DNA from: a virus | Length of the DNA: 64,000 bases | IMG/VR virus record: IMGVR_UViG_3300047325_000130 | Location: 39,637-103,636 of that record | Reading direction: 5' to 3' (one strand) | Notes under the pieces: model-generated | What the model saw: the letters and a program-made list of their open reading frames with translations, nothing else | Told to the model about the DNA's origin: nothing | Databases searched by the model: none | Translations under genes and position numbers: made by a program | Shown: in pieces, positions 36,241 to 53,620 of the stretch | Layout of the letters: every line of letters begins with the position of its first letter | Numbering within the stretch: the first letter of the stretch is position 1

Positions 36241-36447
36241 CAGTACTATTATGATAGTTTTTCTTCCGAATGGATTAAAATGTATGCGTTAGCATCTGCA
36301 AAAGAACTTTTAGGACTTGCATATCAAAATAATATTAAATCTGTGGGAGCAGATGTAGCAAAATTATTATTATTATCTGATGCACAAGATATGAAAAAAA
36401 CTTTAGAAAACAAAAATGGAAAATGGAAAGAAAGATGTCTGATATAA
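36241..36447 (+). pseudogene. Fragment resembling the C-terminus of a T4 gp13-like neck protein
   Basis: Start-less frame EWIKMYALASAKELLGLAY. Confidence 0.3.
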
Positions 36448-36842
36448 TGCCTATACACCAATATCAAAGAGAGGCGGATGCAACAAAATCAACAACTTTT
36501 GTTATGCCGGGTCAAGAAAATAACCCAGCTTCGGTTCCTATTGATGTGCTACATGCTATGATAGGTATTGCAACAGAAAGTGGTGAGTTTCTAAATCCTG
36601 CAAAGAAAGCAATGTTTTACGGGTCTCCGATTGATTTTGTGAATCTGGATGAAGAAATTGGCGATCTTATGTGGTATATTGCAATCTATTGTAATTATAG
36701 AAACGTTGATATTGAGAAGATTTGTAAAACCAATAATGAAAAGTTAAAAGCTCGTTTTCCTAATAAGTTTACTGAGTTTCATGCCAATAACAGAGACTTG
36801 AATAAAGAAAGAGGTATATTGGAGTCAGGTAGTCATTCATAA
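36423..36842 (+). CDS. MazG-like nucleotide pyrophosphohydrolase
   Basis: GIATESGE, KK..FYG, DEEIGDLMWY, N..KLKARFP. Confidence 0.85.
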   Translation: MERKMSDIMPIHQYQREADATKSTTFVMPGQENNPASVPIDVLHAMIGIATESGEFLNPAKKAMFYGSPIDFVNLDEEIGDLMWYIAIYCNYRNVDIEKICKTNNEKLKARFPNKFTEFHANNRDLNKERGILESGSHS

Positions 36843-37142: not shown

Positions 37143-37958
37143 TTGGTTATGAAAAATTATTATAAGTCTATTTTTATATCGGATATACATTTAGGAACAA
37201 CTGCTTGTAATGCTGATGCACTAAATGCATTTTTGAAAGAAAGTAAAAGCGATAATTTGTTTTTAATCGGCGATATAATTGATATGACTTCGTTAAAGAG
37301 ATCATGGAAATGGCCACAATCGCATAGTGATGTAATTAAGAAAATAATTAATCGTGCTAAAAATGGAACCAACGTCGTTTATATAATTGGTAACCATGAT
37401 TATCCTTTAAGAAACTGGTTGAATCACGGACTTGAGTTTGGAAATATCAAATTCTGTAATGAATACGACTATGTTTCTGTATCAGGAGATAATTGGTTAC
37501 TAACCCACGGAGATTTATTCGACAGTGTAATGTTGCATTCCTGGTTGGTAAGTTTAGGTGATCATTTATATACGATATTGTTAAAAACAAATACAGCGGT
37601 AAATTGGTTTAGATATAAATTTGGTTTAGGATTTTGGAGTTTAAGTAAGTGGGCTAAAGCCAACACTAAACAAGCGCTAAATTTTATTTTAAAATTTGAA
37701 GACCATTTAGCAAAATATGCAAAAGATAATGGATATGTTGGAGTTTTCGCCGGGCATATCCATTCTCCTGTAATGAAAGAATTGCATGGTATTATGTATA
37801 TGAATGATGGCGATTTTTGTGAAACATGCTCTGCGATAGTAGAACGTTTAGATGGTGTGTTTGAATTAAAAATTCTTCATTCAAATGGAAAAATGGAAAC
37901 CGTTACAGAATATAATCCAATTTATAAATCTATAATAAACGTCAAAAACATCGATTGA
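37143..37958 (+). CDS. plcP: PlcP-like metallophosphoesterase (phospholipase C / LpxH-like, COG2908)
   Basis: ISDIHLG, GDIID, WKWPQSH, GNHD, HGDLFD, FWSLSKWAK, GHIH, NDGDFCE. Confidence 0.75.
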   Translation: MVMKNYYKSIFISDIHLGTTACNADALNAFLKESKSDNLFLIGDIIDMTSLKRSWKWPQSHSDVIKKIINRAKNGTNVVYIIGNHDYPLRNWLNHGLEFGNIKFCNEYDYVSVSGDNWLLTHGDLFDSVMLHSWLVSLGDHLYTILLKTNTAVNWFRYKFGLGFWSLSKWAKANTKQALNFILKFEDHLAKYAKDNGYVGVFAGHIHSPVMKELHGIMYMNDGDFCETCSAIVERLDGVFELKILHSNGKMETVTEYNPIYKSIINVKNID

Positions 37959-38352: not shown

Positions 38353-39357
38353 ATGAAGATTAGCATTGTTACTGATACTTCCCCTGCAATAAGTATTAAT
38401 GGTGTTTCTACGACTCTAAAAAATACAGTTTTGTGTTTAACCGAGTTGGGACATAATGTTCAAGTTATTGATCCGACTCAATTTAAAACAACTGGTAGCC
38501 CCGGATATCCGGAAGTACGATTGTCTCTAAATCCTTGGAAAATGTCAAAATTAATCAATGATTTCAAACCCGATGCTATCCATATTTCTACAGAAGGTCC
38601 ATTAGGCTTATTTGCTATTTTATATTGTCGTTATAAGAAAATTGAATACACTACCTCTTATCATACTAAGTTTCCAGAATATCTAAATCAATATTTTAAA
38701 TTACCGGTTGGTATTGGGTACACCTTCTTACGTTGGTTTCACAATAAAAGCTCTGCTGTATTAGTAACAACCGAAACTATGAAGAATGAACTTACTGCTC
38801 GCAAGTTTAAGAATATGGTAGTTTGGAATAGAGGTGTCGATCGTAAAATATTCAAACCACATTATCGCATTAGTACAAATCCTAAACCTATTTTGCTTTG
38901 CGTGAGTAGAATAAGTTCAGAGAAAAACCTAGAAGCATTTCTTAACATTTCAATGGATGCAGAAATGATTATGGTAGGCGATGGTCCTGATAGAGCAATG
39001 CTTGAAAAGAAATATCCGCATGTTAAATTTCTCGGGTATAAGCATGGAGAAGAATTGGCTAAGCTTTATGCACAAGCTGATGTTTTTGTATTTCCTAGCC
39101 TTACTGATACGTTTGGCATTGTGATGATCGAAGCTCTTTCTACAGGAACACCAGTAGCTTCATATCCTGTAACTGGACCAATTGATATTATTGAACAAGA
39201 TGTCAATGGATATATGAGTGACAATTTAGAAGAAGCTGTAGGTCACGCATATTATTTGAGTAGGAAGCAAGTTTACGAAAGTAGTCTTAAATGGACTTGG
39301 GAAGCAGCTACTAAAATATTTTTGGATAATTTAGCTGTAAATGCTAAAACAAATTAA
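38353..39357 (+). CDS. agt: GT4 glycosyltransferase, Agt-like glycolipid synthase
   Basis: NGVSTTL, YPEVRL, IHISTEGPLG, TTSYHTKFPEY, RGVD, EKN, DVFVFPSLTDTFGIVMIEA. Confidence 0.75.
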   Translation: MKISIVTDTSPAISINGVSTTLKNTVLCLTELGHNVQVIDPTQFKTTGSPGYPEVRLSLNPWKMSKLINDFKPDAIHISTEGPLGLFAILYCRYKKIEYTTSYHTKFPEYLNQYFKLPVGIGYTFLRWFHNKSSAVLVTTETMKNELTARKFKNMVVWNRGVDRKIFKPHYRISTNPKPILLCVSRISSEKNLEAFLNISMDAEMIMVGDGPDRAMLEKKYPHVKFLGYKHGEELAKLYAQADVFVFPSLTDTFGIVMIEALSTGTPVASYPVTGPIDIIEQDVNGYMSDNLEEAVGHAYYLSRKQVYESSLKWTWEAATKIFLDNLAVNAKTN

Positions 39358-39672: not shown

Positions 39673-40053
39673 ATGATGACACAAAAAACGTTTGTTTACA
39701 CAACCTTTCAAAAATCAGGGTACCATTACTTTCCTGGGGCCGATACGAACCCTGTTACAGCAACAGGAGATCAATACGATGTCTCCCATTTAGGTACAAG
39801 GCATATGCACTATTTTAATTTTAAGGTTTGGGTAGAAGTGACACATTCTAATCGTCAAATCGAATTCATACAGTTACGTCGTTGGATTGAAAATTTATAT
39901 TCAGAAAAACAAATTGAAGTAGATCATAAATCATGCGAAATGCTTGCAGAGGATTTATATACAAAACTATCTGCAAAATATCCTGGGGTTGAAATACGAA
40001 TTGATGTAAGCGAAGAAGGTATAAATGGGGCATATGTTGAGTTTACTGTATGA
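39673..40053 (+). CDS. QueD-like T-fold protein, DpdL-type (candidate CDG decarboxylase)
   Basis: H..LGTRHMHYF in place of the QueD CxxxHGH motif; IEF, SCEMLAE, VSEEG.NG. Confidence 0.6.
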   Translation: MMTQKTFVYTTFQKSGYHYFPGADTNPVTATGDQYDVSHLGTRHMHYFNFKVWVEVTHSNRQIEFIQLRRWIENLYSEKQIEVDHKSCEMLAEDLYTKLSAKYPGVEIRIDVSEEGINGAYVEFTV

Positions 40054-40685
40054 CCTGGTTAGACAGCAGAGAAAAATTTGACAAAAGTTTTTTAATTGAA
40101 AGTCTAGAAAAAACTGGACCAAGAAATGACTTTAGTTTTTTATTAACTCTTATAAATGAAAAGAAGCAATATTTTCCAAATTCTGTAACCAAAGTAAAAG
40201 ATAATTGGATAAAATACCAAAGTAAGGAAATTTTATTATTTTGGTATGAGGATAATAATGAAATTTATATTGCGGCAGAATTTTCTATAGATCCATATAT
40301 TTTAACTGTCAACATAATAGGTAAGAATCTAAAATTTAAAAAATCATATCCATATGCATCAGATTTATATAGTGAAGTTTTAGAAGATTCTAAATCTAAT
40401 AATCCGGCAATTAAATTGTATAGTGATAAAAGTTTAAGTGAAGAAGGATTTAAAATTTGGCAAAGATTATTAGATAAAGGACATAAAATTTCGGTATATG
40501 ATGTTTCAGATAAAAATCATATTGAATTACAAAAAATTACAAATATTGATGATTTAAAAAAATATCATATGCAAGATCCAGAATTTCAAAAATATAGATA
40601 TGTTATTTCAGAAACTTCATATACTTCTGATTTAAATCATTTTTTTGTATTAAGAGAGTATCGTAGATTATCTGGAATTCTTTAA
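40050..40685 (+). CDS. Hypothetical protein
   Basis: 211-aa ORF, ATGA-coupled to the T-fold gene. Confidence 0.6.
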   Translation: MTWLDSREKFDKSFLIESLEKTGPRNDFSFLLTLINEKKQYFPNSVTKVKDNWIKYQSKEILLFWYEDNNEIYIAAEFSIDPYILTVNIIGKNLKFKKSYPYASDLYSEVLEDSKSNNPAIKLYSDKSLSEEGFKIWQRLLDKGHKISVYDVSDKNHIELQKITNIDDLKKYHMQDPEFQKYRYVISETSYTSDLNHFFVLREYRRLSGIL

Positions 40686-40755
40686 TGAAACAGGAAAAAT
40701 ACGCTTTAAAACTTTAGAAATTTTATATACTGAAGATGATAGGATGGAAAAATAA

Positions 40756-40827
40756 ATGACGAAAAAACAAATAATTATTGTACCTATTGAAAAACTTGAA
40801 TCTGTTAAACTTTTGAAATTTTATTAA
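40756..40827 (+). pseudogene. Orphaned 5' stub of the glycosyltransferase gene
   Basis: MTKKQIIIVPIEKLES matches MAKNIFVCPIEKLES of 41228. Confidence 0.7.
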
Positions 40828-41173
40828 TAATATATTTTCCGTAACAAGGTCCTTTACCATTATTAACATAAGCTGTTTTTGAATAATCATATTTGTTTCC
40901 GTGAACATTAGTTGCATGGTTAATAAAAACTGATGTTGTAAATTTTGCTTTATTATTTTCATGCTTTTTTATTTTATGATAACATTCATAACAGCCTTGG
41001 CCGTTCATATGGCTAGCTGGTGTTTGTTCAAACTCTCCATGTGCTACACAGGTTATCTTGACTTTGCTATGTGCATCTTTATACTTAACATTATCATATA
41101 AGTATCTACCATGTGTATGCACATTTTTGAATCGAGATATCGCTTCTTCCTGTGTAAGTTTTCTTCTACTCAT
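40805..41173 (-). pseudogene. Truncated homing-endonuclease-associated repeat protein (DUF723/CapR-like)
   Basis: VHTHGRYLYDNVKY..KVKITCVAHGEFEQTP.SHMNGQGC repeat, a partial second repeat, no nuclease domain. Confidence 0.65.
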
Positions 41174-41227
41174 TATGGTTCCTATTTTTATCGTTCTGCT
41201 TGAAACATTTATACTTAAGGTTAGACA

Positions 41228-42340
41228 ATGGCAAAAAATATTTTCGTATGTCCTATAGAAAAATTAGAAAGCCGTTATTCTTGGAATTGGTATGACCATA
41301 TACCAAAACTATTAGACGCTGCAATCAAAACAAGAAATCTTGACATAGACGTAACCGTTATAGATGGTGACGATGTACCGCCTACACCCACCCCAGGCGC
41401 CTTTCTGGATTTTGGTGCCACCAACATATTCAAGAGTTCTCAACTGCTTATAATAGCTCAACTCTTTAGAGAAAACCGTGTAAAATCAGGGGATAAATTC
41501 TTATATACAGACGCTTGGAACCCTAATGTTATGCAGCTTCGTTATATGAGTAAATTATTAGGAATTGATGTAGAAATACATGGGTTGTGGCATGCCTCCT
41601 CCTCCGATCCTCAAGATTTTCTAGGGCGTTTAATAGGCGATGTGCCTTGGATAAGACATGCCGAAAAAGCAATGTTTGAATGTTTTGATACGAATTGGTA
41701 TGCAACCAAATTTAGTCGAGATTTACTAGATCCGTATTTGCACGATTACAGATACTCTACATCTGAAAAGATGATTACCTCCGCAAAAAAAACTAAGTTA
41801 ACTGGTTGGCCGATGGAATATCTAAAAGATATACTACAGCCATATGTAGCAACACCAAAAAAGAATCAAATTGTATTTCCCCATAGGTTAGCACCAGAAA
41901 AGCAATTGAATATTTTTAAAGATTTGGCTGCCTCTATGCCAGAATATGATTGGGTTGTATGTCAAGAACAAAAACTATCTAAGCCTAAATATCATCAAAT
42001 GTTAGCCGAAAGTAAAATATGTTTTTCTGCTAGCTTGCAAGAAACACTTGGAATCTCCCAATGCTTAGAAGCACCATTAGTAAATACTCTTCCTTTTACA
42101 CCAGATAGATTAAGTTATTCTGAAATATTTAACGATCATAAAGAGTTTTTATATCCAAGTAACTGGACTATTAATTGGGAAAGTTATTTGGTTAATAAAG
42201 AAAAGTTGATGTACAAAATATCTCAGCTCATGCAAGCATCAGATGAAACTATTAAGACTCTAACTCAATTCTATGTATCAGAAACCTTTAATCAATTTGG
42301 GTCATCGCATAATCTGGTAAATGAATTAATAAAAGACTAG
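41228..42340 (+). CDS. GT-B fold glycosyltransferase-like protein in the deazaguanine cluster
   Basis: GAFLDFG, DAWNP, WHASSSDP, FPHRLAPEKQ, SASLQETLGIS..E. Confidence 0.7.
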   Translation: MAKNIFVCPIEKLESRYSWNWYDHIPKLLDAAIKTRNLDIDVTVIDGDDVPPTPTPGAFLDFGATNIFKSSQLLIIAQLFRENRVKSGDKFLYTDAWNPNVMQLRYMSKLLGIDVEIHGLWHASSSDPQDFLGRLIGDVPWIRHAEKAMFECFDTNWYATKFSRDLLDPYLHDYRYSTSEKMITSAKKTKLTGWPMEYLKDILQPYVATPKKNQIVFPHRLAPEKQLNIFKDLAASMPEYDWVVCQEQKLSKPKYHQMLAESKICFSASLQETLGISQCLEAPLVNTLPFTPDRLSYSEIFNDHKEFLYPSNWTINWESYLVNKEKLMYKISQLMQASDETIKTLTQFYVSETFNQFGSSHNLVNELIKD

Positions 42341-42348
42341 TCCGCCTT

Positions 42349-43386
42349 TTGTATAAAATTTGTGTATATACAATTTCATTGAATGAAGAACAAAATGTAG
42401 ATGACTGGTATAAATCTTGTCAAGACGCTGATTATATCTTGGTAGGGGATACCGGTTCAGTTGATAATACTGTTAAGAAATTTAAAGATCTAAATATACC
42501 TGTATATCCAATATCAATTAAACCTTTTAGATTTGATATTGCTCGTAATACGGTTCTTGCAATGGTACCAAACGATATTGATATATGTGTTTGTTTAGAT
42601 CTGGATGAAAGATTAGAAGATGGTTGGAGAAAAAAGATTGAGGATGTGTGGACCCCAACGACAACCAAATTGCAATATACCAGCTATTATAACTTTGCTC
42701 AAAATCCAAATTTGGTTACCAAATTAGATCGTATTCATAAAAGATATAATTATGTTTGGAAAAGAGCTGTACACGAATGTATTATGCCTATTGGTATAGA
42801 TGAAGTTATTACACAATCAGACCTTAACATTTATCAATTTCAAGATACTTCAAAATTTAGAAATTATCTGCCAATGATGAAAATGACATGCGAAGAATAT
42901 CCGGATGATCAAAATTTTTTACATTGGTATGGTAGAGAGTTACGAAGTAGAAATGATAAATCTTGTGTAGAAATATTTAAAAAATATTTGTCTCATCCAA
43001 ATGCAACTTGGAAAGAAGAGAGAGCTGATGCAATGAGATCAATAGGATTATTTGAGAATCAAGAATATTGGCTAAAATTAGCTGTTGAAGAATCAAAATT
43101 ATATCGTAAACCATATGTAGAATTAGCATTGATTTATTATTCTAGATTAGACTGGAGTAAATGTCTTACTCAATGTCTGCACGCGATAAATTTACCAAAA
43201 ACTAATACATATTTAGATGATCAAAATGATTTTGGCCCAATACTTGATGATTTGGCATCAATATCTTATTGGAATTTAAATATGAAAGAAAAATCACTCG
43301 AACATGCTCAAAAAGCATTTGATTTATCTCCAAACGACGAAAGACTCAAAAATAATCTAATTGCAATTAAAAACTCAATAAACTGA
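42349..43386 (+). CDS. GT2 glycosyltransferase with C-terminal TPRs
   Basis: NEE, DTGSVDNT, FRFDIARN, LDLDE (DxD), VHE; TPR-like helices. Confidence 0.85.
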   Translation: MYKICVYTISLNEEQNVDDWYKSCQDADYILVGDTGSVDNTVKKFKDLNIPVYPISIKPFRFDIARNTVLAMVPNDIDICVCLDLDERLEDGWRKKIEDVWTPTTTKLQYTSYYNFAQNPNLVTKLDRIHKRYNYVWKRAVHECIMPIGIDEVITQSDLNIYQFQDTSKFRNYLPMMKMTCEEYPDDQNFLHWYGRELRSRNDKSCVEIFKKYLSHPNATWKEERADAMRSIGLFENQEYWLKLAVEESKLYRKPYVELALIYYSRLDWSKCLTQCLHAINLPKTNTYLDDQNDFGPILDDLASISYWNLNMKEKSLEHAQKAFDLSPNDERLKNNLIAIKNSIN

Positions 43387-43416
43387 TTGTTTTTTACAAT
43401 ATAATATCATAGATAG

Positions 43417-43650
43417 ATGAGCATGAAAATCGGCGATGTAATTAAATGGACGAATAATGAATATTTTTATATTACACATTTAGGCAACTCTGACATAGGT
43501 ACCAAAATAACTGGTTTATGGTTGATCAAACCAAATAATTTATCTGTTGAGGTAATACATTTAACCCATACAGATATATTTCGTTCTCATGCAATCGAAA
43601 ATATCGATAATACAACTCAATTCATTTTGAAATACGTAGATAGCAATTAA
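43417..43650 (+). CDS. Hypothetical protein
   Basis: MKIGDVI start; 77 aa. Confidence 0.5.
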   Translation: MSMKIGDVIKWTNNEYFYITHLGNSDIGTKITGLWLIKPNNLSVEVIHLTHTDIFRSHAIENIDNTTQFILKYVDSN

Positions 43651-43735
43651 TCATTGTTTATCCATATATTTTAGCAATATTGTTGCAATTTCTTTATTCT
43701 TATAATAAAGTTACTTTAACACTTTAGGAAAAACA

Positions 43736-44002
43736 ATGACCGACAACATTTTAATTTGTCAATGCGGTAGTGTAGAACATCAAATTATTTGGATTTATGA
43801 TCCAAGCGACGAAGAAACCCTTGCCTGCCTACGGATTCATTTGTCTGAACAAAATTTCTGTCAAAGATTAATTAAAGGTATCAAATATATTTTTGGTTAT
43901 AAATGTAAACACGGGCATTGGGACGAAGTTCATTTAGATAAATCTAAGGTAAAGGAGCTAAAGACTCTTTGCGAAAATGCATTGAACTCTGATACCAACT
44001 AA
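43736..44002 (+). CDS. Hypothetical protein
   Basis: AGGA SD; CQCGSVEH..IKYIFGYKC..GHWDE. Confidence 0.6.
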   Translation: MTDNILICQCGSVEHQIIWIYDPSDEETLACLRIHLSEQNFCQRLIKGIKYIFGYKCKHGHWDEVHLDKSKVKELKTLCENALNSDTN

Positions 44003-44252
44003 ATTATAAAAGATAATTAGATAAAACTACATTGTTTTCAAAGACAGGTGTTGAGATGAGCTCACTCAATACCATACTTTTAACCAAAAGATAATTAGAC
44101 TTTCTTTTATAATAAGATCATAATTGTTTATGACCTGTAATTTACATCCAGAAGAAACAAAGAAAATATTACAGTCTTTAGCTGGAAAATCAAAAGTGAA
44201 GAACACAGAAAAAGATATGTCAGAAAAAGAAAGAATATTGGAAAAATAAAAA

Positions 44253-45884
44253 ATGCATGATTTATCAAGAACTGATATAAATCCAAACGCAAAAAACTTC
44301 TCAACAAATATGAATGACATGGCAGTATATTTGCCTTCTATTTCTGCGATCTATGCGAAAATAGTTAGCATGCCTGAATATAAAATACGTGATTCTATGC
44401 CAAAAGGGTTGCCATTAGGTTTAGAAGATCTAAATTTTTTAAACCCTAAAAATAATCTATATTATTATCCGGCTGCCTTATACAGTGCCGGACATGCAAT
44501 TTTAGACGTAGATTGCAGTAATGAACAAGAATCTATGATTCAGAAAAGAGATAGAAAAAATACAATTATGATAGGGGATTCGGGAGGATTCCAAGTTGCA
44601 ACCGGCGTATTAAAATGGCCGTGGGAACAAAAAAATAAAACAAATGACGAATGGAATTCAGATAAAAATGACATAAGATTGACTATATTAAGATGGCTTG
44701 AAGCTACTTCGGATTATGCAATGCCGTTAGATTTCCCAACTTATGGGTTAGTAAAGTTTGGTTTAGATCCCGTAACAGGCGAAAGCTTGCACCCAGGTAT
44801 GAAAACGTTTAACGATTGCTTAACACAAAGCTTAGAAAATCATCATTTTTTTATTAAGCATAGAAAAGAAGGTGCTACTAAATTTATGAACGTTCTGCAA
44901 GGGCGTAACCAAGAGGAAGGTGATATTTGGTGGGAAGCTGTAAAGGATCTTCCATTTGAAACTTGGAGCTTCTCAAACGTTCAAGCAAGTAATTTTAATA
45001 TCAATTTACGTCGTTTAATTATAATGCGAGACAATGGCTATTTAGAAAATAGGGAATGGTTGCATTATCTAGGTAATGGTAAGATTAAAGCAGGTTGTGC
45101 ATTAACAACATTGCAACGTTCGCTAAGACAATATGTTGATCCAAATTTGACACTGAGTTATGACGCGGCATCTCCTTTTGTCATGTCATCCCGGGGCCAA
45201 GGTTACGAAGGTTATGAACTATCGAATAGAAATATGGGATTTAAAGGCGGTTCATTTGTCGATGATAAATCATTGAAAGGTAATAAAGAATTATTTAATG
45301 ACTGGATTGCAAGAACATCAAAAAATACAAAATTTCTAAAAAGAACCAATGTAGGTGATAGGATAACAGTTGGTGATATTTGTGTTCGTGGGTATGAGGA
45401 TCTCAAATACAAAAAAGTTGCATGGACTAAGAAAGAACTTGAAACCGATCTATATAAAAACAGTCCTGAAGGGAGAGTCGGCGATCAATTCAGATGGTCG
45501 AAAGAATATCATGATTATCTAACACATCATAGCGATCACGGCGGTCTATTTGATTTCAGTGAATCCAGATTTGAAAAAGAAACAGAAAAGTATCAGGTTA
45601 AGTGGCCATCGTCTATGGACGGGTTTAGTTATTTGTTGTCGATGTGTCATAATTGTGAATTACATATACAAGCAATTCAAGAGGCGAATAATTGGCAAGA
45701 TCAGGAATTATCAATTGCAAATCAATATGTAACCCCCGACCTACTTGAATTTAAAGATCTGTGTCCTGAAATATTCAAGTCAGAGAAGCCAATGGATCTA
45801 ATCGCAAAACATACTAGATTGCTTCAAAATATTACCGGGATGGATGCTTCAAATACTACCCCTATTGACATCGAAAATTTCTAA
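44253..45884 (+). CDS. dpdA: TGT-family DpdA-like 7-deazaguanine insertion enzyme
   Basis: [32 protein letters not shown]...H; folE and queE nearby. Confidence 0.75.
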
Positions 45885-47025
45885 CCTTGCAATTATCAAA
45901 ATGAAACATTGACATACCACCGCTAGCAGGACCGGATTTTTTACAGTGAGGACAAGTTCTTAAAGGTTGAACATAGTCAGGATTCATCTTACATTTGTCA
46001 AAATGATTCATCAGCATGCCTGCACTATAAACACCTTCTAACTCACAATGTGGACAAATAACCATATTTTTAGGTTTCTTAGGTGTTGGTTCAGGCTCTA
46101 CATAGTCAGGATTTTGTTTGCAATTATCAAAGTGATAACGAGTCATGCCTGAACCTCGACCAGTTAAGTCACAATGCGGGCATTGGCTTTCTTTTATAAC
46201 CTTCGGTTCTAGTTTGATATGATCTGTCTTTTGTTTACAATAGTCGAAATGATATCTAGTCATATTGGCTGACCCTCCGGTTAAATTACAATGCGGACAA
46301 GTTAATTTTACAGCTTTACTCTTGCTTTTGTCCGGAGGAACATAACCAGGATTCTTTTTACAATTATCGAAATGACATTTATTATAAGAACCTCTAGCAA
46401 TTAATTTTTTATCACAATGGGGACATATCACTTTTAGTTTATTTTCATCATAATTAGGTGCCGATTTGCAGTTATCAAAATGCCATCTTTTCATTAATAT
46501 AGAGCCACCTGTTTCTTTACAATGTGGGCAAGTTTCCTGAATTTTATTTGGATGTTCATCACTTAGAAAAAAGTGGGTTCCGTCTTCTACTTCTTTTCTA
46601 ACTCTGGCCACACATTCTTCTCTGAAAACAGTATCGAAAAAATTATGATTGCCGGCTTTAATTCTTTTCAAGTTATTTTTCGATTTGAGTTTTTGAGTTT
46701 TTTTCGATGTTATTACACCTGATGCACCATCGCCACCGTCACTCATATTTCTTAAAATACCAGTACCATTATCAATTCTTCCGAACCAATTAATTAATCT
46801 TCTTTCTAAAGCTAACGAACCAGTTTCGGTTAAATTTCGTTCTAAAATTATAATGAATTTTTTATCAGGTAGTTTAACTCTATGTTTTCCCCATGCTCTT
46901 TTACCTTTACCTTTTCCAATATAATAAGGTGTACCAGCTTTTGCTGTTTTTGAATCTTTACTTCTTATATAAGCATAAACATAATATGAAAGTGATAGTT
47001 TATAGTCATAAATAATTTTAGACAT
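45862..47025 (-). CDS. GIY-YIG homing endonuclease with six CPHC...HFD(N)CK zinc repeats
   Basis: [26 protein letters not shown]; repeated CPHC..M..YHFDNCK. Confidence 0.85.
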
Positions 47026-47092
47026 GCTGTAATTCCTGTAAGGTTATAGAATGGTTGGAGACTGTGAATCTCGCGAACCATACTTATTTATC
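47026..47092 (-). promoter_or_regulatory. Late promoter plus structured leader of the endonuclease gene
   Basis: ATAAATA-AGT-ATGGTT-CGC-GAGA..TCTC-C-AACCAT-TCTATAAC..AGGA..ATG; second copy at 55658-55712. Confidence 0.6.
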
Positions 47093-47261
47093 AGGTATCG
47101 TCATTGAAAAAAGAATCAAAAGAAAGAAAAATGTTCAACGATATGAGTGAACAATTGCAAAAATTAGGTTATAATCAACCTAATAAGGTTCAATGTCCAT
47201 GGTGTCTTAAATTTAAAAATTCCAGAAATATTCAAGTCAGAAAGATCAAACTAAATAATTC

Positions 47262-48347
47262 ATGACAAAATCAATTGATCCAACTACATATCCATTTAAA
47301 GGAAAAATAAAAAAATATTATATTGCATTAAGGACTTACCTAAAATCTTTAGGTATATCTTTAGACAAAATGGTGGTAAGAAAATATGGGTTTGATCTTT
47401 ATACAAGCGTTAAGAATGTAAAAACCGGTGAGCCTTTGATTTTGTGGAAGTATGAGATAATTGACCAATATACAACTATGTTTAATGATGTACGTTATGG
47501 AAATACTGCATATAAAATATCAATAGAAGATTTTCTATCTAAGCCAGAATATAAACAAGAGTTTGAAAATATTTTAAAAGCTAATCAAACTATCAAGATT
47601 ACCGACAATAACATATTTAAATATTTTATTGGCGATATAAATACCGTTATTACTAAATCAAAAGGCCGTCTAAATGTAAAAACGGCATTATTTGGTAAAA
47701 ATACAATCTCTGGTAAAATACCAAATTTAAATTTGGGTATTGTTGGCGGAAATTTTTCTGTAGGAAGCTTAAAATTAACAACTCTGGAAAATTGTCCGTA
47801 TGAGGTTCGAAATGGATTTAACTGTTCGTTCAATTTATTAACATCATTAGAGTATTGTCCGTTGGTTAAAGGTGACTTTACTTGCGAACATAATAAATTA
47901 ACATCATTAGAGTATTGTCCGCCAGTTATCACTGGCGATTTTAATTGTTCTAATAATTTGATATCATCATTTGATCATTTCCCTAAATTTGCCAATGAGT
48001 ACTATGTCGATTGTTCTAATAACAACATTGTAACTTTTGACGGATGTCCAAAAGTATATTATCTAAACGTTCGTAAAAATCCACTTAAGAGCTTTTCTTC
48101 TTTACCTGCAACTGTACAAAACATCGAGTTTACATATAATAATGATTTAAAATTATTAGCTCTTATTCCATTAATGATGAAAGGGTTAATTATTGATCCA
48201 TATGATTGGCCAGCGGCGATAGATAAATTCTTTGATATAGACACTCTTGATGAAATGTACAAAGAACACAAAAATATGAAATCATTTATTTTGTATATTC
48301 AAAAAGAATTAATAGATAACGGTTTTGTAGGCAATGCAGGCTGGTAA
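47262..48347 (+). CDS. LRR-like repeat protein with an extra N-terminal domain (dispersed member of the array family)
   Basis: FNCSFNLLTSLEYCP repeats and C-terminus QKELIDNGFVGNAGW; TAAATA upstream. Confidence 0.8.
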   Translation: MTKSIDPTTYPFKGKIKKYYIALRTYLKSLGISLDKMVVRKYGFDLYTSVKNVKTGEPLILWKYEIIDQYTTMFNDVRYGNTAYKISIEDFLSKPEYKQEFENILKANQTIKITDNNIFKYFIGDINTVITKSKGRLNVKTALFGKNTISGKIPNLNLGIVGGNFSVGSLKLTTLENCPYEVRNGFNCSFNLLTSLEYCPLVKGDFTCEHNKLTSLEYCPPVITGDFNCSNNLISSFDHFPKFANEYYVDCSNNNIVTFDGCPKVYYLNVRKNPLKSFSSLPATVQNIEFTYNNDLKLLALIPLMMKGLIIDPYDWPAAIDKFFDIDTLDEMYKEHKNMKSFILYIQKELIDNGFVGNAGW

Positions 48348-48350
48348 ATA

Positions 48351-48794
48351 TTATTTGGAAACGTTAAAAATATAACCAGTACTTGTTTGAACAAATTCAA
48401 CATTGAGTCTTTTAAGTTCTTTAACAAATGCAGCTTTATCTTTTCTATATGGCCATTGTGGTTCTTGAACTTTAACTGACCCCATTGGACTACGACCATT
48501 GCCGCCTGCTCTATAGGTAACATAAATTTTCTTATGAACATTAAAAAAATCTTCAACTATTTCTTTTACCATCTCAATTTTATCAAGATACGCATCATCA
48601 AAGAATTCTGGATTAGATCTTACAGCCTGAGCACTACGTTCTTTTGCATCAGACCAAGCAGCAAACCCATTATATGACTTTCTAGTATTCTTTACTTTGT
48701 CTACATCCAGATCTTCTAATAAAATATTTTCTTTGACTGAAATATTTTCTAGTAGATTAATAAGTTTTCTAATTTCATCAACATTGCTCATCAA
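48351..48794 (-). CDS. Hypothetical protein, candidate internal head protein
   Basis: N-terminus DEIRKLINLLE...ILLE. Confidence 0.6.
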   Translation of the reverse strand: MMSNVDEIRKLINLLENISVKENILLEDLDVDKVKNTRKSYNGFAAWSDAKERSAQAVRSNPEFFDDAYLDKIEMVKEIVEDFFNVHKKIYVTYRAGGNGRSPMGSVKVQEPQWPYRKDKAAFVKELKRLNVEFVQTSTGYIFNVSK

Positions 48795-48888
48795 TTATTT
48801 ATCCATAATTTGTTTCTTGGTCGGTGGTATATTATATTTACCAATTTTAAATTAGACATTGGTTACACATATCTATCATACTTAAAAA

Positions 48889-49392
48889 ATGAAACGAGAT
48901 TATTCAACAGGCGAAGCAACCGCAGTAGATTTTTTTGTCGGAGTCGAAATTGAAAAAACTCCGGCTTATGGATTAAAGACATTATTCGTAACTGGAATTC
49001 ATACCGTAGAAAAAATAATAGAATTGTATAATGAACATTCTTGTTCTCATATATTTTTGGGAGCAAATCAAAGTTATAATTATTCATTGGATAAATGGAA
49101 TCAAATGATAACAGGTGTTCTTGATTACGAGATATTAGTTACTTTAGATTTTGATATTGATAAACTATCATGGATTAAAAATCAACCTTGGTTTAATCGG
49201 GAAAATTTTATTCCGCAAATATCATTTAAAATACCGAACATAAAAAATCTAAATAAAAACACAATGTTGAAATTAGATGATATAGACTTCAAAGCAACAA
49301 ACCCAGGTGTATGGTGTCATAAACTCAGTGATTTACAAACTGATGAAACTTTTACCGGATGGGAAGAATATAAAGGAGATACACCGTTATGA
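48889..49392 (+). CDS. Hypothetical protein between dpdA and folE
   Basis: FVGVEIEKTPAYG.KTLFV, HIFLGANQS, KLDD.DFKATNPGVWCH, FT.W. Confidence 0.7.
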   Translation: MKRDYSTGEATAVDFFVGVEIEKTPAYGLKTLFVTGIHTVEKIIELYNEHSCSHIFLGANQSYNYSLDKWNQMITGVLDYEILVTLDFDIDKLSWIKNQPWFNRENFIPQISFKIPNIKNLNKNTMLKLDDIDFKATNPGVWCHKLSDLQTDETFTGWEEYKGDTPL

Positions 49393-49775
49393 CAACAGAG
49401 ACTACACCAGAAGAAGACTTCTTAGCACATCGCGAAGAATTGTTTAAAGAATACAAAAATGTTAAAAATCAATTGGACCTCGAATGCAACGATCTGGATG
49501 TGTTTCTTAAAACATTAGAAGAAAAGAGAAATGTTATAAGAACTTTATCTACAAAAGAAGATTATCTTAAATCAATTATTAATATAGTATTAAAAGATGA
49601 AATTGATCCATATCTTGCCAAATTACAATATGATCACGAGAAACAACAAAAGGATGACGGATATGCATATGATGACGCCCCCGTCGCCAAATCATATAAA
49701 AAATTCGATTCTAGACATCCCAGAACAAAAATTGGTAGAGTATTTAACCATTTATTAAAGACTTGGAAAGTTTAA
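49389..49775 (+). CDS. Coiled-coil protein, paralog 1
   Basis: HREELF...IDPYLAKLQYD. Confidence 0.65.
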   Translation: MTTETTPEEDFLAHREELFKEYKNVKNQLDLECNDLDVFLKTLEEKRNVIRTLSTKEDYLKSIINIVLKDEIDPYLAKLQYDHEKQQKDDGYAYDDAPVAKSYKKFDSRHPRTKIGRVFNHLLKTWKV

Positions 49776-50101
49776 TGAAGTTAACTAATTTGGATAACGA
49801 TGGTTTGCAACATAGAGAAGAACTATTTTGTGAACTTAGAAAGAAATTGATTGAGAAAAAATCTCTTGAACTAGAATTTGACAATTTTAGAAAATTGGCT
49901 GAAGAATTAAATCATAAAAATGATAGTTTAGAAAAACAGATATTCAATATTAGAAATATTATTCAAAAGGTAATAGAAGATGATATTCATCCTATACAAG
50001 CAAAATTGCAGCATGACCAAAATTTAAAAAATGAAGAAATATACGAAGAAATGAATAGACCAAAGTCTTCTTCATATGGTGCATCAAAGGCATTTAGATG
50101 A
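49763..50101 (+). CDS. Coiled-coil protein, paralog 2
   Basis: HREELF...IHPIQAKLQHD. Confidence 0.65.
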   Translation: MESLMKLTNLDNDGLQHREELFCELRKKLIEKKSLELEFDNFRKLAEELNHKNDSLEKQIFNIRNIIQKVIEDDIHPIQAKLQHDQNLKNEEIYEEMNRPKSSSYGASKAFR

Positions 50102-50469
50102 ATACTGAATATTTTGAAAAATATAAATCTGAATTAGATTTAATGAATTCTTTGACAGCTGAAGCAAAAAGAATAAATGCGCAAAGTATAGAATTAAAAA
50201 AAGCAGCACTTAATATTTTACAACATGCTAAGGATCAATCAAAAGTTGTTCATCACATGCGCAAAGTAATAAGTTATGCACTTGACTCCGGACGCGATCC
50301 GGTAGAGATTTCACTAAGTGACGAAATACAGATTACAAATATAGAAGATGATTCGTCGTGTGCCACACTATGGACAAATATATATTCATTAGAAGAAGAA
50401 TTTAGAAAAGAACAAGAACGTGTCACTAGAAATAGTGGGTATGCAGTTGATCCTCTAAATTATCCTTAG
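50098..50469 (+). CDS. Coiled-coil protein, divergent paralog 3
   Basis: Coiled coil followed by RDPVEISL. Confidence 0.55.
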   Translation: MNTEYFEKYKSELDLMNSLTAEAKRINAQSIELKKAALNILQHAKDQSKVVHHMRKVISYALDSGRDPVEISLSDEIQITNIEDDSSCATLWTNIYSLEEEFRKEQERVTRNSGYAVDPLNYP

Positions 50470-50594
50470 GTTCTAAATAGTTTTTCAATAACCAATGACT
50501 GTACAATAAATATAGTTGTCACACAAAGGTGACAATATAGGGTGTAACCCTCGTTGAGCGTGAACGATAGACGCTTTGAAAAGGAGAATATATT

Positions 50595-51266
50595 ATGTCG
50601 TTTAATAAAAATAAATCAGATCCAGAACTGGGAAAGCGTGTTAATCAACACTTAATTAAAGTCGGAGTCGAAACTCCCACTACGCCAAATAATTTAAGTC
50701 GTACAGATAAAATTGATATTATTGAAACCAAATTTAGAGATATAATGGAAACATTGGGTCTAGATTTAACTGATGATAGTCTAGAAGAAACACCAAAACG
50801 AGTCGCTAAGATGTATGTTGGCGAAATTTTTTATGGTCTTGATTATGATGCATTTCCTAAATGCACCACTGTTGATAACAAAATGAATTATGATGAGATG
50901 GTAATTGAAAGAAATGTAAATGTTCAATCTTCATGCGAACATCATTTTATTACAATATCAGGCGTAGCGACAGTTGCTTATATTCCTAACAAAAAAGTAT
51001 TAGGTCTGAGCAAGTTGAACAGGTTAGTAGAATTTTTTAGCAAGAGACCTCAGATACAAGAAAGATTAACTTCTCAAATATATCATGCTTTACAATATAT
51101 TTTAGAAACAGATAATATCGCAGTAGTTATTGATGCAAAACATTTCTGCGTCGCCGCTAGAGGCGTAGAAGATACAGGCAGTACCACAATTACAAGTAAA
51201 TTAGGCGGGGGCTTTAAGACTGATCCTGCGCTACGAGCCGAATTTATGAATTTTACAAAATCTTAA
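50595..51266 (+). CDS. folE: GTP cyclohydrolase I
   Basis: ETPKRVAKMY, SSCEHH, GLSKLNR, QIQERLT, HFCVAARG. Confidence 0.95.
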   Translation: MSFNKNKSDPELGKRVNQHLIKVGVETPTTPNNLSRTDKIDIIETKFRDIMETLGLDLTDDSLEETPKRVAKMYVGEIFYGLDYDAFPKCTTVDNKMNYDEMVIERNVNVQSSCEHHFITISGVATVAYIPNKKVLGLSKLNRLVEFFSKRPQIQERLTSQIYHALQYILETDNIAVVIDAKHFCVAARGVEDTGSTTITSKLGGGFKTDPALRAEFMNFTKS

Positions 51267-51282
51267 CTTCTTGGTTTAAAGT

Positions 51283-51310
51283 TTGGATTTGGGTTTAAAC
51301 CCAAATCCAA
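51283..51310 (+). terminator. Intrinsic terminator
   Basis: Perfect palindrome ttggatttgggtttaaacccaaatccaa. Confidence 0.7.
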
Positions 51311-51451
51311 CTTCCATCTACTTGAATTTTCAATTAATCTTTTGTAATAGGTGAATTGTTATTCACAAATAGAAATTCCATGACATTTATCAAATAAAAA
51401 TTGATATTTTATCAAAGCTTGTCATAATAATATATAGAGGATGGATAGAAG

Positions 51452-51793
51452 ATGTTAGAAATAAAATCATTTAATGAAGTACCTTGGAAAGATATTAGTT
51501 TTGAAAATGAATGGTATAGTTCATTTCATGCACCGGTGCCAATTTCCCCAGGGCATCTTATCTATGTCCCAAAAGACACGCAAGCATCTAGTATGGCAAT
51601 TGCGTTAAAAGCTGCTCTCGAGGTTGGCGAGTTCATGGTAAAAAGTAAGAAATGGGATGGTTTTAATTTGGGAATTAACTACGGCGAAGCCGCCGGCCAA
51701 AATACAAATTATCCGCACGCTCACTTGATTCCGCGTTTTAACGGTGATAAAGAAAATCCAAAGGGCGGTATAAAAACCATACTCAAAAGTTGA
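51452..51793 (+). CDS. HIT-family protein
   Basis: PISPGHL..PK, GFNLGIN.GEAAGQ...PHAHLIPR..GD. Confidence 0.85.
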   Translation: MLEIKSFNEVPWKDISFENEWYSSFHAPVPISPGHLIYVPKDTQASSMAIALKAALEVGEFMVKSKKWDGFNLGINYGEAAGQNTNYPHAHLIPRFNGDKENPKGGIKTILKS

Positions 51794-52269
51794 AATATAA
51801 GGAAAAGAATTTGACATATCTATCTAATGTAAACGGACTATCTGGTAATTATACTAATGTAAACGGACTATCATCTGGTAATTATATTATGGTACCAAAT
51901 GGCGGATATATAAATACGTTGCAAAACACATATTATCAGTCTTCTTATACATCTTATCCAAGTACTGTAAATGTAACTGATATGTATGGAAAAAACTGTT
52001 TAAGTATAGATTATGAGGGAAATATCAAATATAGTGGTACCCCTAGTAAAGCTGCTAATGAGTTTGTAAAAGCAATTGGCGTAACATTTGATAAGACGTC
52101 CAAGAAATCAATGCTTGCTCGTGCATATATCAGAGCAAATGATAGAATTTTAAAATTAGCTAAAAAAATGACAAAAGAAGAATTGATTGCAAAGCTAGAG
52201 GAAGAACAAAATAATAGAGAATGTACGGAAATTTTTAATAGATTATCCGAATCCGAGGAAGATATTTAG
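51790..52269 (+). CDS. Hypothetical protein with a 30-nt tandem duplication
   Basis: NVNGLSGNY repeated at 51824-51886. Confidence 0.55.
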   Translation: MKYKEKNLTYLSNVNGLSGNYTNVNGLSSGNYIMVPNGGYINTLQNTYYQSSYTSYPSTVNVTDMYGKNCLSIDYEGNIKYSGTPSKAANEFVKAIGVTFDKTSKKSMLARAYIRANDRILKLAKKMTKEELIAKLEEEQNNRECTEIFNRLSESEEDI

Positions 52270-52370
52270 AAATTTAATGCAACGTCAGCATTTTATTCAA
52301 AAATACAATCAATTTATCAAGAAGAAAACAATCTCAATCCGACCAGATATAAACCTCTACCAAAGGCAAA

Positions 52371-52631
52371 GTGTTGGCGTTTGATACAATCGAAAAAAAG
52401 AATATATTGATTGATCAAAAAGAGTTTGATGGTGTCAGATATGTCGGACAAACTAAAAATTTAACAACGGTATTTGATACGGTTGAACAGAAATATGTGC
52501 AAATAGATAAAGAACTTGCAAAAGATGCCAGGTATCAAGGACCTTGCACTGGCAAAAAGAATGTGATTAATTTCATAACTGGTAAAAGATCTCAAATCAA
52601 TTCGACAGATTTTGATTCAACTAAAACATAA
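52371..52631 (+). pseudogene. Repeat-module remnant, possibly from a homing endonuclease
   Basis: Tandem FDT.E.K...ID.....RY.G units; start unsupported. Confidence 0.35.
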
Positions 52632-52768
52632 ATGTACGTTTTTACCAAAAAATAAAATCAAAAATATTCATATATACGAATGGAATCATATTGATCAAAC
52701 TCAATATAAAATTATAGATATTGAAAAATTTAATGAATTATATAATACTTACTTAGGAGATAATAGAA

Positions 52769-53620
52769 ATGAGTGAAATAAAAATAGCGGAAAATTTCTG
52801 GTCGTGTCAGGGTGAAGGACAATATGTAGGTGTTCCTAGTATATTCCTGAGAACGTTTGGGTGCAATTTTACATGTAGCGGATTTGGTCTACCTAAAGGT
52901 GAAATTAGTAAAGAACGTGATATTGTGGCATCTAATATTGATCAATATGACGAATATATGAAATTGCCTCTTGTTACAACAGGTTGCGACAGCTATGCGT
53001 CATGGGATCCTAGGTTCAAGCATCTGTCACCTACATATACTATTTCTCAAATAGTAGATAAATTTCAAGAATTATTACCAGATAGTAAATTCAGTCAAGA
53101 TAAGCATTTAATTATAACTGGCGGTGAGCCACTATTACCAAAATGGCAGAAGTCGTATGTTGAATTACTTAAAGAAATTCAAAACAGAGATATGGAATTA
53201 TCACACCTGACATTTGAAACAAACGGCACCAAGAAACTAGATCCTGTATTGAAAGAATATTTGTGTGAGTCTGGGTTGGAGATTACTTTCTCTGTATCGG
53301 CTAAACTGCCGTGCAGTGGCGAGAAATGGGAAAAAGCCATCTTACCAGAAGTAGTGAAGACTTACTTAGAAGTATCTAATCATAAGAGTTATTTTAAATT
53401 TGTTGTATCGACACAAGATGATATTGACGATGCAAAGAAGGCTGTCAAAGAATATAGAGACGCTGGCATAACAATACCGGTTTATTTAATGCCTGTAGGG
53501 GGAGTTAATTCAATATATGAATTAAACGAAAGACAAGTGGCCGATTTTTGTCGAGATAATGGGTTTAGATTTTCTCCCAGAATTCAAGTACCTTTATACA
53601 AGAACGCCTGGGCGACATGA
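52769..53620 (+). CDS. queE: 7-carboxy-7-deazaguanine synthase (radical SAM), CX3CX36C variant
   Basis: ENFWSCQGEG..G.PSIFLR..GCNFTC...GCDS, ITGGEPLL, FETNG. Confidence 0.85.
   Translation: MSEIKIAENFWSCQGEGQYVGVPSIFLRTFGCNFTCSGFGLPKGEISKERDIVASNIDQYDEYMKLPLVTTGCDSYASWDPRFKHLSPTYTISQIVDKFQELLPDSKFSQDKHLIITGGEPLLPKWQKSYVELLKEIQNRDMELSHLTFETNGTKKLDPVLKEYLCESGLEITFSVSAKLPCSGEKWEKAILPEVVKTYLEVSNHKSYFKFVVSTQDDIDDAKKAVKEYRDAGITIPVYLMPVGGVNSIYELNERQVADFCRDNGFRFSPRIQVPLYKNAWAT

Follow-up and report, generated by a model that had tools for sequence, protein, structure and literature searches.

Does a phage gene set that would build 7-deazaguanine into DNA also attach a sugar to it? The question is raised by bases 39637-103636 of the 103,636-base IMG/VR virus record IMGVR_UViG_3300047325_000130, a 64-kb stretch (hereafter the window, on which coordinates are counted unless a locus or the record is named), in which a glycosyltransferase of the GT-B fold stands among genes for 7-deazaguanine synthesis and base exchange. 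We compared this gene set with 160 IMG/VR loci, of which 80 were anchored on its DpdA-like transglycosylase (of 396 confirmed) and 80 on the GT-B protein (of at least 592 confirmed). Family counts over the 160 loci come from blastp clustering, and the window proteins were also mapped onto the loci by tblastn. A set of 84 loci consists of 80 viral loci and four phage-record regions, and full-flank loci (n=36) are the GT-B-anchored ones that extend 6 kb or more to both sides. The best explanation of the module, which we regard as evenly balanced between holding and failing, is that it makes 7-deazaguanine, inserts it into DNA and then glycosylates it. Every gene listed in a preliminary description of this locus is an intact open reading frame (ORF) at the coordinates it was given. 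The core genes are the following:

39673..40053, plus strand: DpdL-family T-fold protein of 126 aa, a QueD paralog without the catalytic Cys and a proposed 7-carboxy-7-deazaguanine (CDG) decarboxylase; LGTRHMHYF motif, tblastn matches to published DpdL proteins
41228..42340, plus strand: GT4-like GT-B glycosyltransferase of 370 aa, the most constant module gene; AlphaFold2 (AF2) model and Foldseek
44253..45884, plus strand: DpdA-like transglycosylase with the tRNA-guanine transglycosylase (TGT) fold, a divergent 543-aa subfamily; AlphaFold model and Foldseek, GDSGGFQ motif
48889..49392, plus strand: p167, a 167-aa orphan family that accompanies the dpdA-like gene
50595..51266, plus strand: FolE, GTP cyclohydrolase I; PF01227, E 7e-64, 215 bits; phrog_2197, E 7e-77
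52769..53620, plus strand: QueE, 7-carboxy-7-deazaguanine synthase (radical SAM); phrog_2076 'QueE-like radical SAM', E 3.4e-49

In the pathway that we infer, including its step order, acceptor, sugar and attachment site, FolE, QueD (encoded elsewhere or supplied by the host) and QueE would turn GTP into CDG, from which DpdL would make 7-deazaguanine, as proposed for phage phiST. The TGT-fold DpdA-like enzyme would exchange guanine in phage DNA for 7-deazaguanine after replication, and the GT4-like GT-B protein would move a sugar from a nucleoside diphosphate (NDP)-sugar to the deazaguanine, either as the free base or in DNA. The glycosylated 7-deazaguanine would then shield the DNA against host nucleases. 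It is highly probable that the 7-deazaguanine base is made and put into DNA by the DpdA-like enzyme; that GT-B glycosylates this base, so that the virion base carries a sugar, comes close to an even chance.

The GT-B glycosyltransferase

The AF2 model of the window protein (pLDDT 93.5, pTM 0.91) has the GT-B fold and matched at least 500 PDB structures with E <0.001 in Foldseek, headed by BshA, LmbT, MshA, SenB and glycogen synthase, with E-values down to 1.6e-10. The structure model alone was informative, and comparison with the PDB by sequence, single or profile, returned nothing useful. Within the family E281 is invariant and R220, K225 and E272 nearly so; by comparison with GT4 enzymes, these four residues would belong to the NDP-sugar donor site. 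The window protein shows FPHRLAPEKQ and QETLGISQCLEA, with eight residues between the two Glu compared to seven in the EX7E motif.

The best structural matches include the GT4 GlcNAc transferases of the BshA/BshB and MshA/MshB pairs, in which the partner is a PIG-L deacetylase. The likeness is one of fold only, and unlike in those systems no thiol pathway and no deacetylase was found in the window. A complex prediction for GT-B with DpdL scored 0.01, which gives no verdict and carries no weight either way. The family is widespread, with more than 6,700 proteins in metagenomes, among them the abundant marine clusters P0293 and P0324. Some DpdA-anchored loci seemed by tblastn to be without GT-B; the one that was checked, L061, has a divergent family member in that slot, which scores 28.8 bits for Glycos_transf_1, above the Pfam cut-off, and matches the GT-B family profile (hhalign 99.4%, E 2.5e-21).

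A distant GT-B paralog was observed in Xanthomonas phage PhiXhv-12 (L182, 120910-124144), downstream of genes that carry the annotations GlmS and BshB-like GlcNAc deacetylase. The paralog is found in jumbo phages that have no DpdL match, and it looks like a separate amino-sugar transfer system.

Conservation of the module

The recurring module of the 160 loci comprises DpdL, GT-B, DpdA-like, p167 and FolE, joined in a subset by QueE and a HIT-family protein. GT-B is its most constant gene (151 loci), followed by DpdA-like (148), DpdL (144), p167 (120), FolE (114) and QueE (74). Among full-flank loci, DpdL and DpdA-like are present in 36/36 and p167 in 35/36. Co-occurrence with dpdA, which the preliminary description had set as a test for both the GT-B and the p167 family, is thus borne out in each case. 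In 67 of 74 loci, no more than 1 kb separates GT-B from DpdL. Gene order mostly follows one of two patterns, that of the window (DpdL, GT-B, DpdA, p167, FolE ... QueE) or DpdA, p167, DpdL, GT-B, FolE ... QueE.

Module genes are also borne by six cultured phages of six host genera: PA5oct, ACP17, Phosso, X1, BCSR5 and BUCT-ZZ01. The order in ACP17 is QueD, FolE, p167, DpdA, GT-B, DpdL, QueE (gp119-gp126, GT-B being gp124), and in PA5oct it is DpdA, GT-B, DpdL ... QueE (EST35_0316-0322, GT-B being EST35_0317). DpdL adjoins GT-B in Phosso, where DpdA lies 170 kb off, and likewise in BUCT-ZZ01; in X1 and BCSR5 it is DpdA that GT-B adjoins. Through all these rearrangements of gene order, GT-B stays beside dpdL or dpdA. 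The DpdA-like, GT-B, DpdL, p167 and QueE families are all present in ACP17 and PA5oct, and the latter also shares with the window the downstream synteny of p233 and an exonuclease. Identities of the window proteins to those of the two phages are 37-44% for GT-B, 39-50% for DpdL and 31-46% for p167; the DpdA-like protein is 31% identical to that of PA5oct, whereas ACP17 gp123 was reached only by profile comparison. Of these genes, the literature searched had previously noted only dpdL and dpdA of ACP17 and QueE and a PTPS-type gene (gp230) of PA5oct.

By tblastn and in the loci examined, GT-B was found in DpdL sets and not in deazaguanine sets without DpdL. Speculatively, the free C7, or else the decarboxylation itself, could supply the attachment point for the sugar, which would account for this restriction.

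Sugar-tailoring genes within the module

NDP-sugar tailoring genes are found within the module span in 58 of the 160 loci, which strengthens the idea of sugar addition. They encode NAD-dependent epimerase/dehydratases (21 loci), GFO/IDH/MocA oxidoreductases (28 loci), ADH_N-type dehydrogenases (29 loci) and DegT-type sugar aminotransferases (18 loci). Outside this count, UDP-glucose dehydrogenase (11 loci) and cytidylyltransferase (8 loci) also occur in the module. In L068, two tailoring genes lie between dpdA and GT-B, and in L059 and L061 an epimerase gene stands between GT-B and either folE or a phosphoribosyltransferase gene. A weak PIG-L-type deacetylase is encoded two genes from GT-B in BCSR5, which echoes the BshA/BshB and MshA/MshB pairs.

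A precedent for a sugar on a 7-deazaguanine-type base is HuiG, the glycosyltransferase of huimycin biosynthesis in Kutzneria albida, which has been proposed to place GlcNAc on N2 of such a base in free form, and PF13439, a domain of GT4 type, is found in the glycosyltransferases that huimycin-family clusters encode (PMC7439116; bioRxiv 10.64898/2026.04.15.718813). Like the module, the huimycin pathway makes its base via FolE, QueD and QueE; by contrast, its acceptor is a free O6-methylated preQ0 base of secondary metabolism, and QueC is present whereas DpdA is not. By analogy with HuiG, attachment at N2 would have a precedent.

The preliminary description had suggested that GT-B adds a sugar or catalyzes an unassigned pathway step. 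The tailoring genes favor the sugar, with plain 2'-deoxy-7-deazaguanine (dDG) or its 7-carboxy form (dCDG) being possible in this genome.

A sugar-free base as the main alternative

The main rival explanation holds that the DNA carries plain dDG (or dCDG), as in phiST, and that GT-B glycosylates something else, such as another base, a phage or host protein or a host envelope component, its link to the module being one of timing or inheritance. We consider it rather unlikely. The phiST set resembles that of the window in FolE, QueE, a QueD paralog with Leu for Cys, a transglycosylase, a nearby MazG and, as far as the incomplete record goes, the lack of QueC. It differs in having a short DpdA3 (259 aa) and a QueD inside the cluster, which is missing from the present fragment, and in that no homolog of p167, nor by tblastn of GT-B, was found in it. 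The product in phiST DNA is dDG, and ACP17 has been named as another DpdL phage (Cui et al. 2023, PMC10516641). DpdL-type modification can therefore proceed without a sugar. Moreover, phage glycosyltransferases with non-DNA targets are common, and two others adjacent to the module here, the GT2-TPR and GT4 proteins described below, have no conserved link to it.

Several further observations weigh against a glycosylated base. Most of the 160 loci are from related phages that share gene order and so are not independent, and p233 and the exonuclease are conserved neighbors as well, yet they are not pathway genes. The window GT-B itself scores 16.4 bits for Glycos_transf_1 (E 0.0066), below the Pfam cut-off of 26.4. 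The 7-deazaguanine base has no obvious hydroxyl acceptor, so the site must be N2, C7 or another atom. No NDP-sugar tailoring gene is encoded in the record of the window, and the donor here would be a host NDP-sugar. Finally, no chemistry is known for any phage with this module, and DpdL activity has never been demonstrated, heterologous tests having failed (PMC10516641).

Shared gene order among related phages is the chief weakness of the genomic case, and two lines of it are independent of that order, namely the rearrangements across distant phages and the embedded sugar genes. Against an incidental link of GT-B to the module stand its constant proximity to dpdL or dpdA in phages of six host genera with several rearranged gene orders, the lack of any full-flank GT-B locus without DpdL, and the sugar-tailoring genes that some lineages carry between dpdA, dpdL and folE.

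The DpdL-type T-fold protein

The T-fold protein of the window, which had been called DpdL-like and noted for its LxxxHMHxF motif, is indeed a homolog of both published DpdL proteins and has this motif. In tblastn it is 39% identical to ACP17 gp125 (E 5e-24) and 30% identical over 96% of its length to phiST CGPG_00067 (E 1e-5). Alignment with phage QueD and with the DpdL proteins of phiST and ACP17 shows matching metal-binding His and Glu positions and a Leu where QueD has Cys. The QueD signature is CxxxHGH and that of published DpdL proteins is LxxxHRHxF, while the window has LGTRHMHYF, with Met for Arg. A DpdL homolog is present in 75 of the 84 loci, nearly all with L-x3-H-[R/M/F]-H-x-F; the HRH, HMH and HFH variants all occur among them, and the HMH of the window is a common sub-variant. 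The name DpdL was given to phiST CGPG_00067 and to the ACP17 gene beside queE (Cui et al. 2023, PMC10516641).

The DpdA-like transglycosylase and its target

The 543-aa protein has no Pfam (E 0.01) or PHROG match, PF01702 was not detected in the record at E 1, and a sequence search of the PDB, single or profile, found no TGT and nothing else of use. Its AF2 model, built on 27 homologs (pLDDT 88, pTM 0.85), has the TGT fold: all top 50 PDB matches in Foldseek are tRNA-guanine transglycosylases, with probability 1.00, E-values from 5e-7 to 9e-6 and TM scores of about 0.35 by query and about 0.5 by target. Three aspartates, D109 (in GDSGGFQ), D160 and D304, are invariant in the family; they may correspond to Asp102 and Asp280 of TGT.

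A broader family profile matches ACP17 gp123 (hhalign 91%, E 9e-7), the TGT-like gene of its cluster, which we take to be the dpdA of that phage, and matches phiST DpdA3 weakly (hhalign 30%). The TGT/DpdA-like identity assigned earlier to this enzyme is thus upheld both by the model and by the link to gp123. At least 695 homologs were found, none bearing a Pfam domain. Because PF01702 is not matched, phiST DpdA3 is barely detectable and gp123 is reached only by profile, the family is treated here as a separate, as yet unnamed DpdA subfamily.

A transglycosylase of this fold raises the alternative that the product is not in DNA, the target being tRNA, or that it is a soluble deazapurine or pterin glycoside like huimycin or the pterin glycosides of cyanobacteria. 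The combination of FolE, a PTPS-like T-fold protein and a glycosyltransferase resembles pterin-glycoside routes, glycosyltransferases of the HuiG type work on free bases, and the structural matches of the DpdA-like model are tRNA enzymes. Nevertheless, QueE commits the route to deazaguanine, and the DpdA-like family is homologous to the gene taken as ACP17 dpdA. Furthermore, the DNA of PA5oct, which has the same module, is reported to resist restriction enzymes with G-containing sites, and the phage is restricted by END nucleases, one of which hits only phages with modified G (PMC12191111). Resistance together with targeting by a modified-G nuclease argues for DNA rather than tRNA as the target. 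This is in line with described phage sets of this type, all of which modify DNA (PMC10516641), and we judge a product outside DNA to be very improbable. The PA5oct study noted QueE and a PTPS-like gene and left the base chemistry unsolved (PMC12191111).

The orphan family p167

No Pfam, PHROG or PDB match was found for p167, and Pfam was likewise negative for all 15 members searched (15/15). The ESM Atlas model gave partial look-alikes of beta/alpha barrels at low confidence. Homologs are present in PA5oct and ACP17 (gp122); small proteins beside GT-B in X1 and BCSR5 gave hints only (E 0.15 and 0.0064), and there is no match to phiST CGPG_00066 (159 aa).

Expression of dpdL and dpdA from phiST or ACP17 in E. 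coli yielded no dDG, and the authors suggested that extra enzymes may be needed (PMC10516641). GT-B and p167 are obvious candidates for such enzymes: the ACP17 operon contains both, and both accompany the long DpdA types and not the short DpdA3 of phiST. A second alternative starts from these facts and supposes that synthesis or insertion of the base depends on GT-B and p167, for instance through a transient glycosylated substrate of DpdL or DpdA, the final base being free of sugar. Known 7-deazaguanine routes use no transient sugar, and the diverse tailoring genes within the module better fit a displayed and diversifying end product, which makes this alternative improbable.

Synthesis of the deazaguanine base

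FolE is assigned by Pfam and PHROG alike. QueE passes the cut-off for Fer4_12 (25.5 bits against 22) and just misses that for Radical_SAM (27.3 bits against 29.5). In its translation the first two cluster cysteines lie in GCNFTC, and the third appears to sit some 36 residues away from its usual place, in TTGCDSY, so that the spacing is C-x3-C-x36-C and not C-x3-C-x2-C.

The window was described as having no canonical QueD, QueC or QueF. A search for queD and queC in the remaining record, which had been called for, extended this finding: neither QueD (PF01242) nor QueC (PF06508) is matched anywhere in the 103.6 kb, and the sole QueF signal is a cross-match within FolE. According to CheckV the record is about 26% complete, which implies that the whole genome is that of a jumbo phage of roughly 400 kb, so the absence of a gene from the record is weak evidence. 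In PA5oct and three CheckV-complete relatives (328-519 kb), one or two PF01242 genes apiece keep the catalytic Cys (CxxxHGH or CxxxHGY); such genes are mostly far from the module, and in 17 loci they lie within it. Because complete relatives encode a Cys-bearing QueD elsewhere, the lack of QueD is best put down to the fragment, probably because three quarters of the genome are absent from it. QueC is lacking in PA5oct, consistent with the rule given for DpdL by Cui et al., under which the pathway goes no further than CDG.

The phage itself is a distant relative of Pseudomonas phage PA5oct. The G+C content of the region is about 30-35%, and megablast against phage records gave no DNA-level match. 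By protein comparison, the studied genes have their nearest cultured relatives in the PA5oct group, which are Pseudomonas jumbo phages, and in Sinorhizobium phage Phosso; single genes are nearest to ACP17, Aeromonas phage Ahp1 and others.

Some relatives show further genes of deazaguanine metabolism. A 518-kb complete relative (L185, G002:C1:457835-458062) has a genuine QueF match of 66.9 bits about 5 kb from its module, and elsewhere in that genome QueC-like PP-loop matches are weak only. Given this QueF, some relatives may make a different deazaguanine derivative. Other, weak QueF matches were rejected as probable cross-matches of FolE, and weak QueC matches in relatives are presumably other PP-loop proteins. 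In Xanthomonas phage X1, a module gene after folE (L180, 70090-70623) is annotated as 'PAPS reductase family' and encodes a PP-loop protein, and in G004 a weak QueC-like ORF adjoins QueD; these two may be divergent amidotransferases of the QueC type found in some lineages.

Insertions and neighboring genes

The window is a common core spread by insertions, namely a 211-aa gene, a minus-strand ORF, GT2-TPR, two small genes, a homing endonuclease, a leucine-rich repeat (LRR) gene and three paralogs. Compared with ACP17 and PA5oct, it adds the 211-aa gene, GT2-TPR, two endonuclease-type genes and the LRR gene. The ACP17 cluster is compact and includes QueD, whereas PA5oct has FolE, QueD and p167 elsewhere in its genome. 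The inserted genes include:

40050..40685, plus strand: orphan gene of 211 aa, a local insertion; no Pfam or PHROG match
40805..41173, minus strand: Cys/His-rich ORF of 122 aa upstream of GT-B, interrupting the module
42349..43386, plus strand: GT2-TPR glycosyltransferase, a lineage-specific insertion; phrog_13126, E 1.5e-82
45862..47025, minus strand: homing-type endonuclease of 387 aa, overlapping the 3' end of the dpdA-like gene; PHROG endonuclease/homing-endonuclease families, E down to 2e-22
49389..50469: three tandem small genes (128, 112 and 123 aa) between p167 and folE, paralog-like

GT2-TPR begins 8 bases past the end of GT-B, and the two had been described as a pair of embedded glycosyltransferases. 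This holds for GT-B, which belongs to the module; GT2-TPR is absent from all 160 related loci (0/160) and was rejected as a core component. Its homologs are found in PaBG, Lu11 and Erwinia jumbo phages, and none was seen among the DpdL-carrying phage records found by tblastn. Judged by its position, which is the sole support, it might add a second sugar or extend the first. The 211-aa gene likewise has homologs in 0/160 related loci, and both genes are therefore local insertions.

The homing-type endonuclease has a GIY-YIG-like N-terminus and repeated CPHC...HFDxCK units, and its homologs occur in just 7 of the 84 loci. The three tandem genes have HREELF... and ...KLQ[YH]D... stretches in common; none of them matches a known family, and homologs are confined to a few related loci.

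Other neighbors lie upstream of the module or between folE and queE:

35405..36157, plus strand: conserved protein of 250 aa, upstream of the module; no Pfam match
36423..36842, plus strand: MazG-type NTP pyrophosphohydrolase; PF03819, E 3.7e-9, 33.8 bits, above cut-off
37143..37958, plus strand: metallophosphoesterase; Pfam Metallophos, E 8e-12
38353..39357, plus strand: canonical GT4 glycosyltransferase; GT4 families, E about 1e-21
51452..51793, plus strand: HIT-family protein, an optional recurrent member between folE and queE; PF01230, E 3.4e-6, above cut-off

The metallophosphoesterase and GT4 genes, directly upstream of dpdL, occur together in 19-20 of the 80 DpdA-like-anchored loci; among the 80 GT-B-anchored loci, GT4 is found in none and Metallophos in one. 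The upstream GT4, present in 20/160 loci and almost always paired with the metallophosphoesterase, was thus rejected as part of the core, and the two are probably a facultative unit with a separate function; a second sugar step in the DNA pathway is another candidate role for the pair.

The MazG named in the preliminary description is a real gene, its domain match being at record positions 76203-76406 (36567-36770 of the window), and it lies outside the 39673-53620 range to which that description referred. It would shape the nucleotide pool, and in phiST a MazG-like gene is also found beside dpdL. The 250-aa protein shares 66% identity with a representative of a cluster that has members in 82 of the 160 loci. 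HIT is present in 20/80 GT-B-anchored and 7/80 DpdA-like-anchored loci.

Two more families recur in related loci. A small phosphoribosyltransferase (PF00156) is encoded within the module in 54 of the 160 loci (L059:15804-16292, L061:16273-16848 and 52 more) and also in BUCT-ZZ01 (cyanophage; L179:4453-4914); it could salvage the guanine freed by DpdA or make a deazaguanine nucleotide. S-adenosylmethionine synthetase, found in nine loci, would serve QueE.

Implications for phage DNA modification

Phage glycosyltransferases that decorate a modified base are well represented by those acting on 5-hydroxymethylcytosine or 5-hydroxycytosine, such as AGT and BGT of T4, which install lineage-specific sugars against nucleases (bioRxiv 10.1101/2023.12.21.572611; PMC13326640). 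Their acceptors are pyrimidines with a hydroxyl group, whereas the purine analogue that would be the acceptor here offers no obvious hydroxyl. T4 AGT and BGT are not among the structural matches of GT-B listed, the best of which are small-molecule GT4 enzymes. Every DNA glycosylation described in the literature searched is on a pyrimidine, and no description of glycosylated 7-deazaguanine in DNA was found in that literature, which lies mostly outside subscription journals. Eight 7-deazaguanine derivatives are known in phage DNA, none of them sugar-bearing, and the paper that lists them makes no mention of glycosylation (Cui et al. 2023, PMC10516641).

The DpdL-type set is already known, and the additions made here are a new DpdA subfamily, the orphan partner p167 and an integral glycosyltransferase. 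Tentatively, and with somewhat less than an even chance of being right, the phages with this module, including the present one, may carry glycosylated 7-deazaguanine with a sugar that varies between lineages, which would be the first sugar-bearing purine-type base in any genome. In such a case the sugars could be amino sugars, uronic acids or deoxy sugars in lineages with tailoring genes, and here possibly a disaccharide made with GT2-TPR. Since the same genes are present in PA5oct, ACP17, Phosso, X1, BCSR5 and BUCT-ZZ01, this reading is directly testable in cultured phages.

If true, it would establish a new chemical class of DNA hypermodification together with a new DpdA subfamily, in a system with at least 592 GT-B loci in IMG/VR, and would offer a reason why dpdL and dpdA alone produced no dDG in E. 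coli. It also puts forward a specific candidate for the way in which G is modified in PA5oct, which has been investigated against P. aeruginosa infection.

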